A stretch of 64,000 nt of DNA from Nitrososphaeria archaeon (GCA_963752255.1 CAVVXT010000019.1:160001-224000), one strand, 5' to 3'; counted from the first letter of the stretch, positions 1-7,874 are shown. Notes: generated from the sequence alone by a model not told the origin. Made by a program: numbers and translations.

Positions 1-172
1 CGTGTAAAATCGCTCTTTTTATAGCCAAAGGGTCTGTTCCAATAACTTTAGGGTCTATTGTTAAACCTCCAACAGACTCGACTATAACATTTCCTTTAAC
101 AGCCTGGTTCAATAGCTCTTTAACACCTTCAGCAAGCCTTTTACTATGAGAAACAATGACTATGCCTACCAT
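1..172 (-). CDS. dhaM: PTS-dependent dihydroxyacetone kinase phosphotransferase subunit DhaM (EIIA-mannose fold), runs off the window edge
   Basis: Not in the ORF track. Manual translation from ATG at 172 gives MVGIVIVSHSKRLAEGVKELLNQAVKGNV...VIGTDPLAIKRAI, with the DhaM IVIVSHS phospho-His motif and GTD motif. Starts 3 bp after the dhaL stop. Confidence 0.88.
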   Translation of the reverse strand, partial: MVGIVIVSHSKRLAEGVKELLNQAVKGNVIVESVGGLTIDPKVIGTDPLAIKRAILH

Positions 173-175
173 GAA

Positions 176-832
176 TTATTCACCCTTCTCCCTTACGAAA
201 TCGTACATCACCTTAATTATCAGATAGGCACTTGTTGCTCCGGGATCTTGATGGCCAGCAGCTCTTTCACCCAGATAACTCGCTCTACCCTTCTTTGCTA
301 TCAATGGAATCGTAGACTTCAATCCCCGATCAGCTGCCATTAGAACTCTTTCGAGAACATTTACTAGACCGGCACAACTTATATCACGTGACTTGTTCAA
401 CTCCTGCACCGCAGGGTAGAGGGTATCTACCATAGTCTTGTCCCCTGGCATAGTGCCGCCTCCTATATCTTGGACAGCTTTCAGACCTTCTACGAAAATT
501 GCTGCAAGATCTGCATTATTTGCCTCTTTTTTATCTGATGCTGCTGATGCCATACCTGTAAACATCATGCCATACAATGGTCCTGCAGCACCACCCACCG
601 TTTCCATTAAAACGGTACCTGTTGTCATAAGAACATCTCCAATATCTGAATTCGGATCTGCCTTCTTAAGCTGTTCAACTACACTCTTAAACCCTCTATT
701 CATGTTAATACCGTGATCCGCGTCTCCGATAGCTGCATCCAAGTCTGTTAAATACTCCTCATTTTCGTTCATAACAAGGCTGACCCTACATATTATTTCA
801 ATAAAATCTGACGTTTTAAGAGTTCTCGTCAA
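176..832 (-). CDS. dhaL: Dihydroxyacetone kinase ADP-binding subunit DhaL
   Basis: Motifs LTDLDAAIGDADHGINMNRGF, GGAAGPLYG, GDKTMVD, GRASYLGER..GHQDPGA. Start placed at TTG 832 to avoid overlap with dhaK. Confidence 0.93.
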   Translation of the reverse strand: MTRTLKTSDFIEIICRVSLVMNENEEYLTDLDAAIGDADHGINMNRGFKSVVEQLKKADPNSDIGDVLMTTGTVLMETVGGAAGPLYGMMFTGMASAASDKKEANNADLAAIFVEGLKAVQDIGGGTMPGDKTMVDTLYPAVQELNKSRDISCAGLVNVLERVLMAADRGLKSTIPLIAKKGRASYLGERAAGHQDPGATSAYLIIKVMYDFVREKGE

Positions 833-863
833 ATCCACAGCACTTTTCAGAATGTGTCCTATT

Positions 864-1871
864 CTAGCAGATGACTGGACCCGGCGTGTTGATTGCAACC
901 GTTGCTGCGCGATCTCCAAGAAGGCTCTTCAATTCCTCGTCCAGTTTAAGCACTCCCACCCTTGCTCCCTGCATTTCAAGAGAGGACATGAATTCACCTA
1001 TCCAGCTAGCGTAAACAATCAATCCTAAGGAGTCAACATATTTCCTTACATCCCTGTAAAAGAGTAGTTTTTCCATATAAGGAGTGCCACCTGTTCCTTG
1101 AACCATCAAAGCTATCTTATCACCTCTAACTGTGCTCAGGTCTTCAACTACCTTGTCAACCATCATTTTTGCGAGCTCTTCAGAAGGAACCCATTTTGCT
1201 TTCTCTACACCCTTCTCACCATGTATTCCTATTCCGATTTCTATCTCATCTTCACCAAGTTCAAAGGTGTGCCTGCCTACAGCGGGAACACTACATGGGG
1301 TCAGAGCAACACCAAATTCGCGACCATTTTCTATTACTTTCTGTGATACCCGTTTCACATCTTCTAGATTTCCACCCTTCTCAGCTAAAGCGCCAGCTAT
1401 CTTGTGTACAAAAACGGTTACACCAGTGCCTCTCCTTTTCGATTTGTCTCGGATTGCAACATCATCGTTAACTATAACCCAGTCAACCATAATGCCTTGA
1501 GCCCTTGCCGACTTTGCTGCTGACTGGAAGTTCATAACGTCCCCCGAATAATTCTTTATGACTATCAGGATGCCGGCTTTAGTAGATACCTCCTTTATTC
1601 CAAAAATAATTTGTGGAATCGTCGGAGAAGTGAAGGTAGCGCCAGAACAGGCACAGTCAAGCATGCCGAATCCCACATAACCCGCGTGAGCTGGTTCATG
1701 TCCGCTGCCGCCTCCTGAAAGAAGAGCGACCTTATTGTCCGCTTTCTTATAGACCCTGTAGACGTTGTTCCATTTGGAATCTAATTTCACTACGTCAGGA
1801 AAGGCTAGCGCCAACCCCTCTAGCATTTCCCGGACTTCCTCCCCTGGTCTATTAATGAGCTTCTTTATCAC
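864..1871 (-). CDS. dhaK: Dihydroxyacetone kinase DHA-binding subunit DhaK
   Basis: Motifs KKLIN, SGGGSGHEPAHAGYVG, KNYSGDVMNF, GIGIHGEKG (catalytic His). Confidence 0.95.
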   Translation of the reverse strand: MIKKLINRPGEEVREMLEGLALAFPDVVKLDSKWNNVYRVYKKADNKVALLSGGGSGHEPAHAGYVGFGMLDCACSGATFTSPTIPQIIFGIKEVSTKAGILIVIKNYSGDVMNFQSAAKSARAQGIMVDWVIVNDDVAIRDKSKRRGTGVTVFVHKIAGALAEKGGNLEDVKRVSQKVIENGREFGVALTPCSVPAVGRHTFELGEDEIEIGIGIHGEKGVEKAKWVPSEELAKMMVDKVVEDLSTVRGDKIALMVQGTGGTPYMEKLLFYRDVRKYVDSLGLIVYASWIGEFMSSLEMQGARVGVLKLDEELKSLLGDRAATVAINTPGPVIC

Positions 1872-1969
1872 ATGTACAAGGTTTCATCATCTGACATATA
1901 TCCATTGTTTATGCGAAATTCTATCTAAATGGAAAGAATTCGATCTGTAACCTTCTAAAAAGGACCGTG

Positions 1970-3550
1970 TTATTGGAAGGATAAGAGCTTTTTAACTTCA
2001 ACCGTTGGCTCAGGCTGCACAATCGGCACTTCTCCTAGATAGACATTACCTGTACTTCCATCGACGGTGATCAGGTCGCCTTCCTTAACCTTGATTCCGT
2101 TGACTTCGAAGAAGCCTCTTTCCATATCGATTCTTATTTTATCACATCCTACGACACATGGCTTTCCAAACCCTCTTGCTATAACGGCTGCGTGACTTGT
2201 TAGCCCACCGACGACGGTCAGGAGCCCTTCAGAAGCAGCTACACCGGCTATGTCGTCCGGCCTTGTTTCCTGTCTCACTAGAACAACCTTAATGTCGGCT
2301 TCTTTCATTCTTATGGCATCGTTTAAGCCAAAGACTACTTTGCCGGATGCGACGCTAGGCGAAGCCGGAAGACCTTTGACCAAAGGCGTACCTTTAAAGC
2401 GTTGATCGATTTTCTTATAGAAAAGCTGCCTAACCTGTGAAATATCTATTCTTTCCAGCGCTTCCTTTTTAGTGATCAACCCCTCTTCAACCATATCTAC
2501 TAGAATCTTTATTGCAGCCATACTTGTTCTTTTACCTGTTCTACTTTGTAAGACAAAGAGCTTATCACTTTCAACAGTAAATTCTATTTCTTGCATATCT
2601 TTGAAGAATTTTTCTATCTTATAGGCGACTTGTATAATGTGCTCATACAACTTGGGCTTAGAATGCCTAAGTTCGTTTATTGGTTTCGGAGTTCTTAGCC
2701 CCGACACTATTTCTTCGCCTTGAGCTTCCGAAAGATATTCACCGTATATTTCTTTCAGCCCTGTTGACGGATTCCTTGAGAAAGCGACGCCTGTCAATGA
2801 TGACTCGTCAAAGTTTCCGTACACCATACTCATTACGATAACAGCTGTTCCTAAATCATCGTTAATCTTGTACATTCTTCTGTATGTTGAAGCACGCGGG
2901 TTCCACCATGAATCAAAAACTGCAGATATGGCTTGATAAAGCTGTTCATATGGATCTTCAGGCAGCTTTTTTCCGGTTACCTTTTCTACGAGCAATTTGT
3001 AAGATTCAGCGACATTGCTATAAAAACTTGGAGAAGAAACAGATATGTTCTTGACACCAAATGTTTCTTTAATGTCATTAAATGTGTGTGTGAAGTTCTC
3101 GTCTGGAACCTTCAAAACAGTTTTGCCGAAGCTTCTTATAAACGAGCCATAAATTTCATACGCAAACCTCTCATTTGAAGAATATTCTGCAAGCGCTTTA
3201 ACCACCATCTCGTTAACCCCTAAATTTAGAACGGTGTCCATCATTCCCGGCATAGAAAATGGAGCACCAGATCTCGCGGACACAAGTAACGGATTCTTGG
3301 AGCCTCCAAAACTTCGTCCACACTTCAGCTCTAGTTCCTTCATCTTCAAGAAAATCTTTTCCTTTAGCTCTATTGTAAGCTTCCTTTCATTAGCACAATA
3401 TCTTTTAAATGATTCCGTTGATACAATAAAACCGAGTGGAACAGGTAACCCCAACTTTGAAATTTCAACTAACATAAAACCCTTTCCCCCGATTTCAAAC
3501 TCCGTTAGGCCGTGAGCAGCTGCTTCGTCAAAAGAATAAACTAAGACCAT
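1970..3550 (-). CDS. Pyruvate,phosphate dikinase-like protein with ATP-grasp and phospho-His swivel domains only; the C-terminal PEP/pyruvate-binding barrel is absent
   Basis: PPDK motifs GGKG, PLLVSARSGA..SMPGMMDTVLNLG, GEYL..AQGE..VSG.RTP, EFTVE..KLFVLQSR.GKRT and GGLTSHAAVIARG. Stops at ...VKKLLSFQ* about 100 bp before dhaK. Likely start is ATG 3550. Confidence 0.9.
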   Translation of the reverse strand: MVLVYSFDEAAAHGLTEFEIGGKGFMLVEISKLGLPVPLGFIVSTESFKRYCANERKLTIELKEKIFLKMKELELKCGRSFGGSKNPLLVSARSGAPFSMPGMMDTVLNLGVNEMVVKALAEYSSNERFAYEIYGSFIRSFGKTVLKVPDENFTHTFNDIKETFGVKNISVSSPSFYSNVAESYKLLVEKVTGKKLPEDPYEQLYQAISAVFDSWWNPRASTYRRMYKINDDLGTAVIVMSMVYGNFDESSLTGVAFSRNPSTGLKEIYGEYLSEAQGEEIVSGLRTPKPINELRHSKPKLYEHIIQVAYKIEKFFKDMQEIEFTVESDKLFVLQSRTGKRTSMAAIKILVDMVEEGLITKKEALERIDISQVRQLFYKKIDQRFKGTPLVKGLPASPSVASGKVVFGLNDAIRMKEADIKVVLVRQETRPDDIAGVAASEGLLTVVGGLTSHAAVIARGFGKPCVVGCDKIRIDMERGFFEVNGIKVKEGDLITVDGSTGNVYLGEVPIVQPEPTVEVKKLLSFQ

Positions 3551-3629
3551 GAATACATACAAATAGTCTGAAATATTAAATCTTATTGGAAAAACATTTA
3601 ATAGACAAAGCTGCTTTTCCAAAACTTAT
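3551..3629. promoter_or_regulatory. Probable divergent promoter between the PPDK-like/dhaKLM unit and HPr
   Basis: Intergenic gap of about 80 bp. TATA-like TTTAAATA about 25 bp before the HPr ATG, and TTTAATAT on the minus strand about 25 bp before the PPDK-like ATG. Confidence 0.5.
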
Positions 3630-3896
3630 ATGATCAAAGGTGAAGTAACACTGTTGAACAGGACTGGGTTGCATGCCCGACCCGCTGCAAAGTTAGTTCA
3701 AATGACAAAGAAGTTCAGATCCAAAATAAGCATAATTAAGGGAGATCAAGAGGCTGACGCTAAGAGTGTAATCAGAATCCTCTCCCTTGGCGCAGAGCAA
3801 TGGGATAAGATCGTTATCAAAGCAGACGGAGAAGATGAAAAAGAAGCTTTTGAAGCGTTAATGACACTTATCAGCAATAAATTTTGGGAGGAGTAA
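3630..3896 (+). CDS. ptsH: PTS phosphocarrier protein HPr
   Basis: GLHARPAA (His15) and DAKS (Ser46) motifs; 88 aa. Confidence 0.95.
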   Translation: MIKGEVTLLNRTGLHARPAAKLVQMTKKFRSKISIIKGDQEADAKSVIRILSLGAEQWDKIVIKADGEDEKEAFEALMTLISNKFWEE

Positions 3897-4071: not shown

Positions 4072-4713
4072 ATGATACGATTGATGCACAAAGACGACCC
4101 CAGACCCTACATAGAAGAAAAGGGATTACATATAAAGCTGTACAAAAACCTTGTTAAAAAGAGACCTAAACTATGGAATGCACTACAAAAGAATCTGGGG
4201 GAACTGCTAGAGTATTATCAGGAAGACCCAGACAAGCTTATTTTACTTTACGAAAAAACCATATCAGACGACTTTCTAGACAGCCGCGAAAGCCCAGAAA
4301 AGTTTTGGATTTTTCTTGTTCTAAAATTTTCTATAAGTTACCTTAATGAGACAAAAAATGTCTTTAACTTCCATTATGATTCCGTCAAGAAATTTTATGA
4401 TAACGAAATTCCGGCTCTAATGAAAACTGACATCGAAATTGCTCAACTTTTAGATAATGAGCCGTACAGAAACCTTTTTCTTAACAGACTTTACTCTACG
4501 AGAAGGGATTTATATCTAAAACTGGATAGGCTCTTGAAAACATATGATAATTTCAAGGAAGTGTCTAAGAAAGATGAAGAATTAGAAGGTAAACTGAATA
4601 AGAAACTTTCAATTTTTAGATTTATCCACCCACTTAGATTTAACAGATTTATAAAAGAAATTGAAAATAACCAGCCAAGTTTAGAAAAATACATTCCTCT
4701 AGTTTATTCTTAA
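4072..4713 (+). CDS. Hypothetical protein
   Basis: 213 aa ORF in an AT-rich stretch; no recognised motif. Confidence 0.6.
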   Translation: MIRLMHKDDPRPYIEEKGLHIKLYKNLVKKRPKLWNALQKNLGELLEYYQEDPDKLILLYEKTISDDFLDSRESPEKFWIFLVLKFSISYLNETKNVFNFHYDSVKKFYDNEIPALMKTDIEIAQLLDNEPYRNLFLNRLYSTRRDLYLKLDRLLKTYDNFKEVSKKDEELEGKLNKKLSIFRFIHPLRFNRFIKEIENNQPSLEKYIPLVYS

Positions 4714-5185: not shown

Positions 5186-7874
5186 ATGGAGAATTTCAGT
5201 AAACCACAGTGGCACACTCTTGAACCTGATGCCGTATTGCAGAATATTGGTAGCAATAGAGATGGTCTTAGCGAACAAGAAGTTAAAGGGAGAAGGGAAA
5301 AGTATGGAATAAACGAAATAAGAAGAGAGAAGAAGATTTCTCCATTGAAGCTCTTTATCGAACAATTCGAGAATATTCTGATCATCCTATTATTGGCAGC
5401 TACAGCATTTTCTCTTTTGGTCGGAGAAGTGCTGGATGCTGTAGTAATTTTCGCTATAGTTATAGCCTCAGCTGGCCTAGGATTCATAGAAGAATTTCGT
5501 TCTGAGAATGCAGTACAGCTTTTGAAACAACTTGCAGCGCCCACTGTTACACTGATAAGAGAAGGAAAAGAGCAAGTAGTCCCTTCCTCAGATATCGTTC
5601 CTGGAGACATAGTTGTACTGCGAGTGGGAGATAAGGTTCCTGCTGACATTAGGTTAATTGAAGTTTTCAATTTAAAGATAGATGAAGCACCTTTAACTGG
5701 AGAGTCTCTTCCGGTAGAAAAGAACGTAACGGTCCTACCAGAAAATACAGTTATCCCGGATATGACAAACATGTCTTTTAGTGGTACTGTTGTAACCTAT
5801 GGCAGAGGCTTAGGTGTTGTAGTTTCTACTGGGAATGAAAACAGAATTTGGAAAAATCGCTAAAACTGTGCAAGAAGAGCAAAAAACCGAGACTCCACTG
5901 GAGCGAAGAATGAATACAATCAGTAAGACGTTGATTTCTTTTATGTTGTGTGTTTGTGCTCTTGTTGCTTTCTTTGGAATAATAAGAGGCTATGCTATTT
6001 TAGATATGATTCTTTGGGGAATCAGTTTAGCTGTGGCAGCCGTACCTGAAGCGTTGCCCGCTGTTGTTACTGGTTCATTAGCGGTAGGTATGTACGAAAT
6101 GGCTAGGAGAAAAGCGATAATAAGAAGACTTCCTGCAGTTGAAACTTTGGGAGGAACCTCTATAATATGCTCAGATAAAACAGGTACAATGACAAAGGGT
6201 GAAATGACGGTCAGAAGGATGTATGTTGAAGATAAAGTTATTGAGGTTAGTGGCGCAGGTTACGAGCCCAAAGGAGCTTTTTATATCGATGGCCAGGAAA
6301 TCGATTCTAAAAAATCTGAGGGACTACTAAGACTTCTAAAAGCATCGGCATTATGCAATGACGCAAAACTCGCCAATGAAAAAGGCAAGTGGATGGTTAT
6401 TGGGGATACTACGGAAGGCGCACTACTAGTTGTTGCAGCCAAAGCTGGAATTTATGTGGAAAAGTTGAATCAAGGAAGAGTAAACGAGATACCTTTCACT
6501 TCGGAACGAAAGAGAATGACTACCATCCATGTTGTCCCAGAGTTCGATAAGAAACTTGTTTTGATGAAAGGGGCCCCTGAAGTTGTCCTTGAGAAATGTA
6601 GCCGTGTCTTTATGAACGGAAAATCCACTTTGCTGTCACAAGAGAAAAAGAAAGGAATTTTAGAAGTAAATGAGAAGATGGCTTCTGATGCACTACGAAA
6701 TCTTGCATTAGCATACAGAGAGGAGATAGACGTTCCTGATGATCTCGACGAAGAATTTGAGAGAAATTTCATATTCTTGGGTCTTGTCGGAATGATAGAC
6801 CCTCCACGCCCAGAAGTAAAAGAAGCACTCAAGCTTTGCGATAACGCTGGAATAAAGGTCGTGATGATAACAGGAGATCACAAGTTAACTGCAGTTGCAG
6901 TCGCTAAAGAACTGGGCATAGTCAAAGATGACAACAGTTTGATCCTAACAGGTGCTGAACTTGAGAGAATGCCAGAGGAAGATTTTGACAAGATTGTAGA
7001 AAATGTAAAGGTATACGCAAGAGTCTCTCCCGAACACAAAATGAGAATAGTCAAAGCTCTAAAGGAAAAAGGACACATCGTAGCCATGACAGGTGACGGG
7101 ATAAACGACGCGGCAGCTCTCAAGATGGCGGACATTGGTATTTCAATGGGAATTACTGGAACTGAAGTAACTAAAGAAACATCTGATATGATTCTAGCAG
7201 ACGACAACTTTGCAACTATCGTCAATGCCGTAAAAGAGGGAAGAAGAATATTCGACAACATCAAAAAGTATCTTGTATATCTCTTGCAATGCAACCTAGC
7301 AGAAATCGCTACAATGCTAGTCGCAACCCTCGCAGGCCTTCCAATACCTCTGACAGCGATACAATTACTCTGGGTGAATCTAACCACAGATGGCCTACCT
7401 GCTTTAGCATTAGGAATCGATCCAGCAGAATCCGATTTAATGGAAAGGAAGCCAAGGCCACTAAAAGAAAGTATAACAACTAAAAGGGAAAATTGGATAT
7501 ACTTCGTTATAGTTCCTGCAGTCCTAACATCGATACTCCTCATTAACTTTACTTGGTCGTTGGCCAACGAATCCATGGTGGAAGCTAGGACGCAGACATT
7601 CACAGTCATGATAGCATGCGAACTTGTAATAGCTCTATCTTGTCATTCAGCAAAGCATTTATTCTACAAATCTAAGCCATTTTCCAACAAATTCCTATGG
7701 ATTGCTGTAATAAGCTCTTTCCTAATGCAATTCTTTGTCCTTTATGTTCCCTTCATGCATGTACCTTTTGACATTACCTTCCCAAGCCTTCAGGATTGGA
7801 CACTTGCCGCAGTCTCAGCTACCATAATATTCTCTACTGTAGAAACACTAAAGTTCCAAATAAGGAAGAAATAG
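5186..7874 (+). CDS. P-type ATPase, type II (Ca2+-transporting-like), split by a 1-nt frameshift near 5831
   Basis: LTGES, AAVPEALP, CSDKTGT, KGAPE, MITGD and MTGDGINDA motifs. ORFs 5186-5863 and 5835-7874 join as ..STGMKTEFG.. if one G is removed. Confidence 0.92.

Follow-up and report, generated by a model that had tools for sequence, protein, structure and literature searches.

A barrel-less pyruvate, phosphate dikinase homolog and an N-terminal-domain-only Enzyme I in an archaeal DhaKLM cluster: a candidate ATP-driven phosphorelay

A 64,000-nucleotide stretch of DNA from a Nitrososphaeria archaeon (GCA_963752255.1, CAVVXT010000019.1:160001-224000; hereafter the window) was analyzed for a gene cluster at its left end that encodes a dihydroxyacetone (DHA) kinase of the phosphotransferase system (PTS) type. 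The window is G000:C19:160001-224000 of the source genome G000, an assembly of 19 contigs that is 94.67% complete. Domains were called gene by gene with Pfam, and further scoring was done with NCBIfam models against their cut-offs. The cluster comprises dhaK, dhaL, dhaM, ptsH (encoding HPr), a shortened homolog of pyruvate, phosphate dikinase (PPDK) that we call half-PPDK, an Enzyme I reduced to its N-terminal part (EIN-only), and a small gene designated orfX (Table 1). A previous sequence-only reading of the window had dhaK-dhaL-dhaM downstream of a co-oriented 526-amino-acid (aa) PPDK homolog, with HPr divergent across about 80 bp; the coordinates agree, the gap being 79 bp. Searches of G000 with tblastn found one HPr, one EIN, and one DhaKLM genome-wide and no homolog of EIIC-GAT or EIIA2. 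Half-PPDK and EIN-only are the two relatives of phosphoenolpyruvate (PEP)-utilizing enzymes in the cluster, and both lack the PEP-binding barrel.

From its N terminus, half-PPDK consists of an ATP-grasp domain, a His swivel domain (T451-S452-H453, in the motif GGLTSHAA), and a linker, at which the protein ends. Pfam found no match to the PEP-utilizers_C barrel (PF02896) in it, and Pfam and the alignments both uphold the earlier description of a PPDK homolog that keeps the ATP-grasp and swivel domains and stops at the linker. His453 was invariant in alignments of 17 homologs (A1) and 40 homologs (A4), and K23, R93, E323, Q335, and R337 were likewise invariant in A4; we take these six to be the residues that serve nucleotide binding and catalysis in Clostridium symbiosum PPDK. 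Half-PPDK is 51 to 61% identical to archaeal and bacterial PPDKs across its first ∼525 residues. It shares with PPDK the nucleotide-site residues and the T-S-H motif and differs from it in the absence of the barrel, and pyruvate/PEP chemistry is therefore impossible for this protein. It failed the equivalog model for full-length PPDK, TIGR01828 (643.9 bits versus a cut-off of 843.45), and passed NF004531 ("pyruvate, phosphate dikinase," 534 positions; 490.4 bits versus 456, model positions 25 to 464), which is presumably a model of the short mycobacterial PPDK type.

The truncation of half-PPDK is genuine. That it was not a frameshift had been proposed from the ∼100 bp remaining before dhaK, and the spacer measures 98 bp. 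Three other protein clusters, P0001 (92% identity), P0002 (72%), and P0003 (73%), of 526 to 538 aa, have termini no more than 12 residues from the end of half-PPDK, past the linker, and a second barrel-less archaeal group (P0037, P0067, P0080, P0086-88, P0092, and P0105; 529 to 550 aa, 50 to 52% identity) stops slightly farther on, by a few residues. In other public runs, contigs span the junction without indels (X1 record 2, 337-2023; X5 record 20, 1922-2184), although the top-matching run among them may be the source sample itself. Near-identical DNA was present in soil and peat metagenome runs from two studies, and there were no RNA runs among the listed sequencing runs with such DNA. Of 78 differences in the contig variants, 40 were listed, and 4 of those 40 fall in half-PPDK, too few for a comparison of synonymous and nonsynonymous change. 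Because there is no space for a barrel downstream, because the stop position is common to other clusters, and because the bridging contigs are free of indels, the truncation is no frameshift or assembly artifact. Nor is it unique to one assembly, an outcome that the sequence-only reading had said would count against it, since it is common to other protein clusters and to contigs of other runs.

The same reading had placed half-PPDK in the position of Enzyme I. The absence of a PEP-using barrel held up, but an Enzyme I of the EIN-only type lies 722 bp left of the window. This protein consists of the HPr-binding subdomain (PF05524) and a His domain (PF00391) in which the S-H (His187) is conserved, both in common with PtsI. 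It is without the linker and the PEP-binding, dimerizing C-domain (PF02896) of PtsI, and its score on TIGR01417 is 139.5 bits against a cut-off of 341.7. Sequence comparison shows EIN-only to be a conserved architecture: eight more clusters (P0371 to P0378) have 47 to 86% identity and 229 to 267 aa, and 5 of the 8 end at the same ...INP. Other EIN matches, at ≤35% identity, resembled fragments of bacterial Enzyme I on short contigs.

A ptsI gene or a separate barrel elsewhere in the genome had been named beforehand as evidence that would speak for PEP-dependent activity. Neither a complete Enzyme I nor a stand-alone Enzyme I barrel was found in G000 by genome-wide searches with PF02896 and PF05524 at the completeness given above. 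The sole PF02896 locus is a PEP synthase on contig C12, beside GAPDH and PGK. At that locus (G000:C12:157041-162515), the PEP synthase is divided among three open reading frames (ORFs) of 329, 207, and 241 aa and the neighboring PGK between two of 142 and 258 aa; in relatives, PEP synthase is a single frame of 789 to 817 aa. The split genes are either pseudogenes or assembly indel errors, and should the split prove real, the PEP synthase barrel would exist as a protein by itself.

Table 1. Features of the half-PPDK/dha cluster and additional orfX copies. Coordinates are window positions unless a contig or locus is named.
Feature	Coordinates	Strand	Description
dhaM, first 57 codons	2-172	-	Open-ended ORF, runs past the window edge
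dhaM, entire	G000:C19:159774-160172	-	132 aa; single EIIA-Man domain, PF03610 1.4e-22; His9
dhaL, ADP-binding subunit	176-838	-	Dak2 5.6e-53; TIGR02365 217.6 bits versus cut-off 138.3
dhaK, dihydroxyacetone-binding subunit	864-1871	-	335 aa; Dak1 1.2e-109
Spacer, half-PPDK stop to dhaK start	1872-1969		98 bp; too short for barrel
half-PPDK (barrel-less PPDK)	1970-3550	-	526 aa from ATG; PPDK_N (PF01326) 2.4e-41; PEP-utilizers mobile domain (PF00391) 8.7e-23
Divergent spacer, half-PPDK/ptsH	3551-3629		79 bp, AT-rich
ptsH (HPr)	3630-3896	+	88 aa; His15; PTS-HPr 9.2e-28; TIGR01003 93.3 bits versus cut-off 47.9
EIN-only Enzyme I	G000:C19:158590-159279, 722 bp left of window	+	229 aa; PF05524 1e-22, PF00391 1e-21
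orfX	G000:C19:159322-159768, left of window	+	135-148 aa; small helical protein
Other orfX copies	L150:8942-9547; L149 ~6860-7461; L044:10692-11321

For the subunits of the kinase itself, the start codon of dhaL is uncertain (GTG at 838 or TTG at 832), and DhaK scored 383.1 bits on TIGR02363, slightly below the cut-off of 406.25.

These genes suggest a relay in which the PEP-using step is replaced: ATP > half-PPDK His453 > EIN His187 > HPr His15 > DhaM His9 > DhaL-ADP > DHA. We regard the chances of this relay as evenly balanced. Half-PPDK would bind ATP in its ATP-grasp domain, phosphorylate its own swivel His453, and release AMP plus PPi or Pi. The phosphoryl group would then pass to His187 of the separate EIN-only protein, which keeps the HPr-docking subdomain and has no PEP-binding barrel. 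From there the path would be canonical, from HPr His15 to DhaM His9, to ADP on DhaL, and to the dihydroxyacetone bound to DhaK. The relay is read from gene content and conservation, and it is from these that we infer the half-PPDK-to-EIN transfer, which way the phosphate flows, which nucleotide products arise, and what orfX may contribute.

Two bodies of published work bear on the choice of donor. The Enzyme I of Escherichia coli binds PEP through its C-terminal domain (EIC), and EIN carries His189 and the HPr site; the isolated EIN of a thermophilic bacterium (tEIN) was phosphorylated only via catalytic full-length EI, HPr, and PEP (PMC8295985). Since the PEP site lies in the domain that EIN-only is missing, and since tEIN was charged only through full-length EI, EIN-only needs another donor. 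Mycobacterium tuberculosis Rv1127c (VadK), a PPDK that lacks the pyruvate/PEP domain, autophosphorylates on His422 with ATP and Mg (Pascoe et al., EMBO Rep 2026, PMC13400623). ATP-dependent His autophosphorylation is thus shown for this distant relative alone and would apply to half-PPDK by analogy. Half-PPDK is favored as the EIN donor because it is the sole other phospho-His enzyme kept with EIN and because a relative charges itself from ATP. Because an EIN-only Enzyme I with HPr-binding and His domains sits in the cluster, half-PPDK more likely replaces the barrel of a split Enzyme I than the whole enzyme and, judged from the sequences, probably feeds EIN rather than HPr directly. The observation behind the sequence-only reading is confirmed, and its interpretation is partly supported.

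The half-PPDK/EIN pair was also examined by complex prediction. The score was 0.41 (runs of 0.41, 0.01, and 0.45), and the best of three controls scored 0.00; the predicted runs had at least 85% contact agreement and a partner pLDDT of at least 75. Of 80 solved complexes, 58 reach the mark used for complex scores, as do 2 of 110 mismatched pairs; because the prediction was made with our own alignments, these counts apply to it approximately. At scores of ≤0.60, the mark was reached by only 7 of the 80 solved complexes and by both of the passing mismatches. The prediction lends weak support to a pairing of half-PPDK with EIN.

Recurrence of the module was assessed in a class sample (201 genomes searched with half-PPDK, including the unpublished genome G131, and 401 searched with Pfam families) and a phylum sample (401 genomes searched for PF05524). 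PPDK-like genes were present in 161 of the 201 class genomes. Frames of 546 to 551 aa were seen in G000 and G033 alone, and the other listed class PPDK-like frames below 850 aa were of 640, 641, and 820 aa. These two genomes were also the only 2 of 401 class genomes with PF05524, both EIN-only and both with half-PPDK and DhaM/HPr. G033, which belongs to the same family and another genus and is 68% complete, carries EIN (-), HPr (+), and dhaM-L-K (-) on one contig and, on a separate contig, a half-PPDK (46% identity) directly adjoining a 210-aa orfX. The entire module was not found in G025, a genome of the same genus that is 97% complete. Dak1 occurred in 7 of the 401 class genomes, and no DhaM, HPr, or EIN was found within the 20-kb loci of DhaK/DhaL pairs in G041, G068, G074, G088, and G385. 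G033 has a second DhaK/DhaL pair, on C11 (L046:9953-11592), likewise without DhaM, HPr, or EIN in its 20-kb locus. Pairs without these three partners may be ATP-dependent two-subunit DHA kinases.

Across the phylum sample, 16 of 401 genomes carry PF05524, in frames of 233 to 280 aa in G000, G655, and G705 and of 562 to 619 aa in the other 13. In G655, the genes for EIIA2, EIIC-GAT, ribulose-phosphate epimerase, HPr, EIN-only (250 aa), orfX, half-PPDK (538 aa), and another EIIA2-like ORF are contiguous neighbors. The G655-type layout is found again in metagenome loci L152 and L153, plus a small EIIB-like ORF that was identified by eye. In G705 and metagenome locus L151, the genes are orfX, EIN-only, HPr, EIIC, (EIIB), and EIIA, and half-PPDK is not adjacent. 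The set of barrel-less PPDK, orfX, EIN-only, and HPr recurs in Thermoproteota, with DhaKLM or with an EIIA/B/C sugar PTS. A survey for barrel-less PPDKs next to ptsH/dhaKLM, which had been suggested along with the original proposal, gave a divided answer: half-PPDK recurs with EIN-only and HPr in G655, L152, and L153 and, on a separate contig, in G033, but most barrel-less PPDK/orfX pairs are without a PTS. A contig scan with half-PPDK returned only full-length PPDK-like matches, nearly all of them bacterial, as befits a ubiquitous conserved pattern.

The partner gene orfX defines a family of its own. Its products are typically ∼200 to 220 aa and combine a weak MarR/TrmB-like winged helix with a helical C-domain, whose invariant positions (F, WQ, N-H-D, D, and H-W-H) include three invariant His. 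The G000 protein is without the N-terminal winged helix and keeps all 10 invariant residues. Its gene is ∼2.2 kb from half-PPDK, past dhaKLM and on the opposite strand; the two are directly adjacent in G033, G655, and L152. No Pfam or NCBIfam family matched orfX. The orfX profile found 2066 cluster representatives at E ≤ 0.001, 571 of them at E ≤ 1e-30, and it confirmed 559 of 599 candidate metagenome stretches, of which the best 80 were kept (L151-L230). Among these 80 best loci, a barrel-less PPDK-like gene lay ≤2 kb from orfX in 40, directly downstream and on the same strand in 32, and there was a barrel match in 1. Where more than 2 kb was available on both sides of orfX (n = 27), a barrel-less PPDK was present in 17 loci and none in 10. 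In the EIN-only genomes, the profile matched orfX by its full model or C-domain in 4 of 4, versus 0 of 13 genomes with full-length Enzyme I, which gave weak winged-helix matches only (E of 1.2e-5 or worse).

Fusion proteins place orfX at the position of the missing domain. P0335 (716 aa) is composed of PPDK_N, the mobile His domain, and orfX (residues 519 to 712), and the metagenome ORFs in L212 and L221 resemble it by the ORF rule; because orfX is C-terminal to the His domain in fusions of this type, it can occupy the place of the barrel. A different fusion, P0336 (442 aa), joins a histidine-phosphatase-superfamily domain (His_Phos_1, 3.9e-30) to orfX, a further hint that may link orfX to phosphoryl chemistry. 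Structure models were confident for orfX (pLDDT 93.5) and for the G000 C-domain-only protein (92.3). Foldseek searches of the PDB with both models found no solved relative of the C-domain at E ≤ 0.001, the best subthreshold matches being generic helical bundles and, for full orfX, winged-helix regulators. An HPt-like or DinB-like C-domain was considered and was unsupported, neither fold being matched at that threshold. Sequence searches of the PDB with orfX gave MarR-type winged helices only, and the ESM Atlas gave unnamed or "transcriptional regulator" clusters, mostly from Actinomycetota. A tentative and rather doubtful role for orfX is that of a coupling part that would dock swivel His domains and pass phosphate, or let it pass, from the dikinase (half-PPDK, or PEP synthase where there is none) to EIN.

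To place the truncated proteins, a quick IQ-TREE phylogeny of 54 N-terminal regions was built; it is unrooted, the tree search was short, and many rows have deviant composition. In this tree, barrel-less forms do not make up a single clade, with starred branches forcing at least three changes of truncation state. A bacterial barrel-less clade is separate (15 rows, 100*), and the G033/G655/L152 group (98*) and the window group (100*) are both nested among archaeal full-length PPDKs. The window clade is sister (100*) to archaeal full-length PPDK-like proteins of 849 to 853 aa (P0004, P0005, P0007, P0008, and P0009). In the two sisters that were aligned, P0004 and P0008, barrel motifs deviate where canonical PPDKs read GTNDLTQ and CGE, and the sister proteins may represent a stage between PPDK and the barrel-less form; a search of the phylum with P0004 at E ≤ 1e-240 gave no matches. 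The EIN, HPr, and DhaKLM proteins of G000 and G033 are orthologous (43 to 67% identity), whereas their half-PPDKs fall in two different starred clades. If the tree holds, a barrel-less dikinase was therefore kept twice by the same PTS.

Comparison with known systems sets the cluster apart from each of them. The VadK paper reports its family in mycobacteria, other actinomycetes, and a Burkholderia, does not mention archaea or the PTS, and describes Rv1126c as an operonic partner of VadK that copurifies with it (PMC13400623). VadK and half-PPDK are alike in having ATP-binding and catalytic His domains and no PEP/pyruvate domain, and bacterial barrel-less PPDKs in the surveyed loci also adjoin orfX. 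Rv1126c is presumably a member of the orfX family. The two dikinases differ in grouping, since the bacterial barrel-less clade (100*) is distinct from the window clade, whose neighbors are archaeal full-length PPDKs, and in context, which is EIN-only, HPr, and DhaKLM for the window and methylcitrate genes for VadK. In rifampin phosphotransferase (one three-domain protein), phenylphosphate synthase, and the Hpe two-component kinase (separate polypeptides), ATP-grasp and swivel His domains serve a nonpyruvate acceptor, which is a small molecule on a dedicated domain or subunit; the acceptor proposed here is instead a phosphocarrier protein. The similarity of half-PPDK to rifampin phosphotransferase models is limited to the His domain (69.9 bits versus a cut-off of 999).

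Like the PEP-dependent DhaKLM systems of the E. coli, Lactococcus, and Haloferax type, the cluster has DhaK, DhaL, an EIIA-Man-type DhaM, and HPr, and from HPr onward the relay should proceed as it does there. Unlike them, it has no PEP-using Enzyme I, and its DhaM is a lone EIIA domain. The model of E. coli-type DhaM, NF008478, fuses HPr-like and EI-N-like parts, which correspond to the window HPr (positions 160 to 241) and EIN (positions 256 to 472 of 473). A 2008 PTS survey counted just one known archaeal PTS (PMC2405797). A literature search that left supplementary files aside turned up no paper in which a barrel-less PPDK is connected with EIN-only, HPr, or the PTS, and the EIN-only/half-PPDK split PTS is a variant not described in the literature found.

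Elsewhere in the window, a P-type ATPase (motifs DKTGT and GDGINDA) is split between two overlapping ORFs in different frames (5186-5863 and 5835-7874, + strand), owing to a frameshift or an assembly error. A 213-aa ORF (4072-4713, + strand) matches no Pfam family and has a 69%-identical homolog at L045:19447-19998, ∼8 kb from the G033 dha cluster.

Several points weigh against an ATP-driven relay through EIN. The strongest are the G705 lineage without half-PPDK and the PTS-free majority of the barrel-less PPDK/orfX family. In G705 (88% complete), half-PPDK was not found, and PF00391 and PF01326 matched just PEP synthase and EIN. HPr occurs in 3 of the 80 best orfX loci, and most barrel-less PPDK/orfX pairs have no PTS nearby. 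VadK, the one member studied, is assigned a regulatory role in the methylcitrate cycle (PMC13400623). Because most of the pairs lack a PTS and VadK is described as regulatory, charging a PTS is not the ancestral job of the module. In G000 itself, dhaKLM and orfX lie between half-PPDK and EIN, with EIN on the opposite strand, and the barrel-bearing PEP synthase could in principle act in trans. The half-PPDK/EIN complex score falls in the weak range, with a value of 0.01 in one run of three. We know of no precedent for direct transfer between two homologous swivel His domains.

A regulatory role remains a live rival because half-PPDK belongs to a wide barrel-less PPDK/orfX class that is mostly unrelated to the PTS. 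Half-PPDK and orfX would then form a VadK-like regulatory His kinase that senses ATP or energy state and controls dha/PTS genes or proteins, with EIN charged otherwise, for example from another donor or from the barrel of PEP synthase acting in trans. The frequency of the pair without a PTS (40 of the 80 best loci and 17 of the 27 with >2-kb flanks, against HPr in 3 of 80) fits this explanation, as do the N-terminal winged helix that orfX usually shares with MarR/TrmB regulators, the reported regulatory function of VadK (PMC13400623), and the presence of EIN-only and orfX in G705, where half-PPDK was not found. We nevertheless consider it unlikely. On this view EIN-only would have no donor in those genomes in which an Enzyme I barrel was not found, and the distribution of the orfX C-domain (in all 4 EIN-only genomes but in 0 of 13 that have full-length EI) is unexpected for a mere PTS regulator. 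The G000 orfX has moreover lost its DNA-binding domain and kept all 10 invariant residues and a predicted fold (pLDDT 92.3), and for VadK transcriptional control of the target pathway was reportedly not found (PMC13400623).

Direct charging of HPr His15 by phosphorylated half-PPDK, with EIN as a side branch (a buffer or regulator), would suit the position of ptsH as the divergent neighbor 79 bp away and the homology of PPDK and EI His domains (half-PPDK and the G655 EIN are 40% identical over 65 residues by tblastn). It is made improbable by the HPr-docking helical subdomain PF05524, which is absent from half-PPDK and supplied by EIN, and by the conservation of EIN-only alongside HPr in every lineage seen. 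That the cluster might instead be the decaying remnant of a horizontally acquired PTS, with truncated genes that no longer cooperate, is suggested by the lack of the whole module in G025, the several split genes of the G000 assembly (PEP synthase, PGK, and P-type ATPase), and the missing N-terminal domain of the G000 orfX. Against decay, the stop positions and lengths of half-PPDK and EIN-only are conserved over several sequence clusters, every catalytic His and nucleotide-site residue is kept, and the same truncated pair occurs in at least four lineages; we judge it very improbable. The nucleotide partial reaction of PPDK is reversible, as in textbook enzymology, and the relay could on that ground run backward, with HPr~P or EIN~P and AMP plus PPi or Pi yielding ATP on half-PPDK, as the sequence-only reading had also envisaged. 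This is scarcely credible for a cluster in which DhaKLM is a phosphate sink and no source of HPr~P is apparent, the Enzyme I barrel and, by tblastn, EIIC-GAT and EIIA2 not having been found in G000.

The relay from ATP through half-PPDK and EIN would bear on how a PTS is understood. Reliance on PEP is the defining trait of the PTS, whose regulation derives in large part from sensing the PEP/pyruvate ratio. If the relay is real, sugar or DHA phosphorylation would be coupled to the adenylate pool, and the His domains of PPDK and Enzyme I would be rewirable in trans. It would also offer a concrete acceptor for the large barrel-less PPDK family, in which the phospho-acceptor of VadK was not identified in the accessible text (PMC13400623). 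The survey flags orfX as a conserved partner of barrel-less dikinases. If orfX does act as a coupling part, the thousands of barrel-less PPDK/orfX pairs of bacteria and archaea, VadK included, would be entry points of an unrecognized class of ATP-driven His phosphorelay, with the archaeal loci amounting to phosphotransferase systems independent of PEP.

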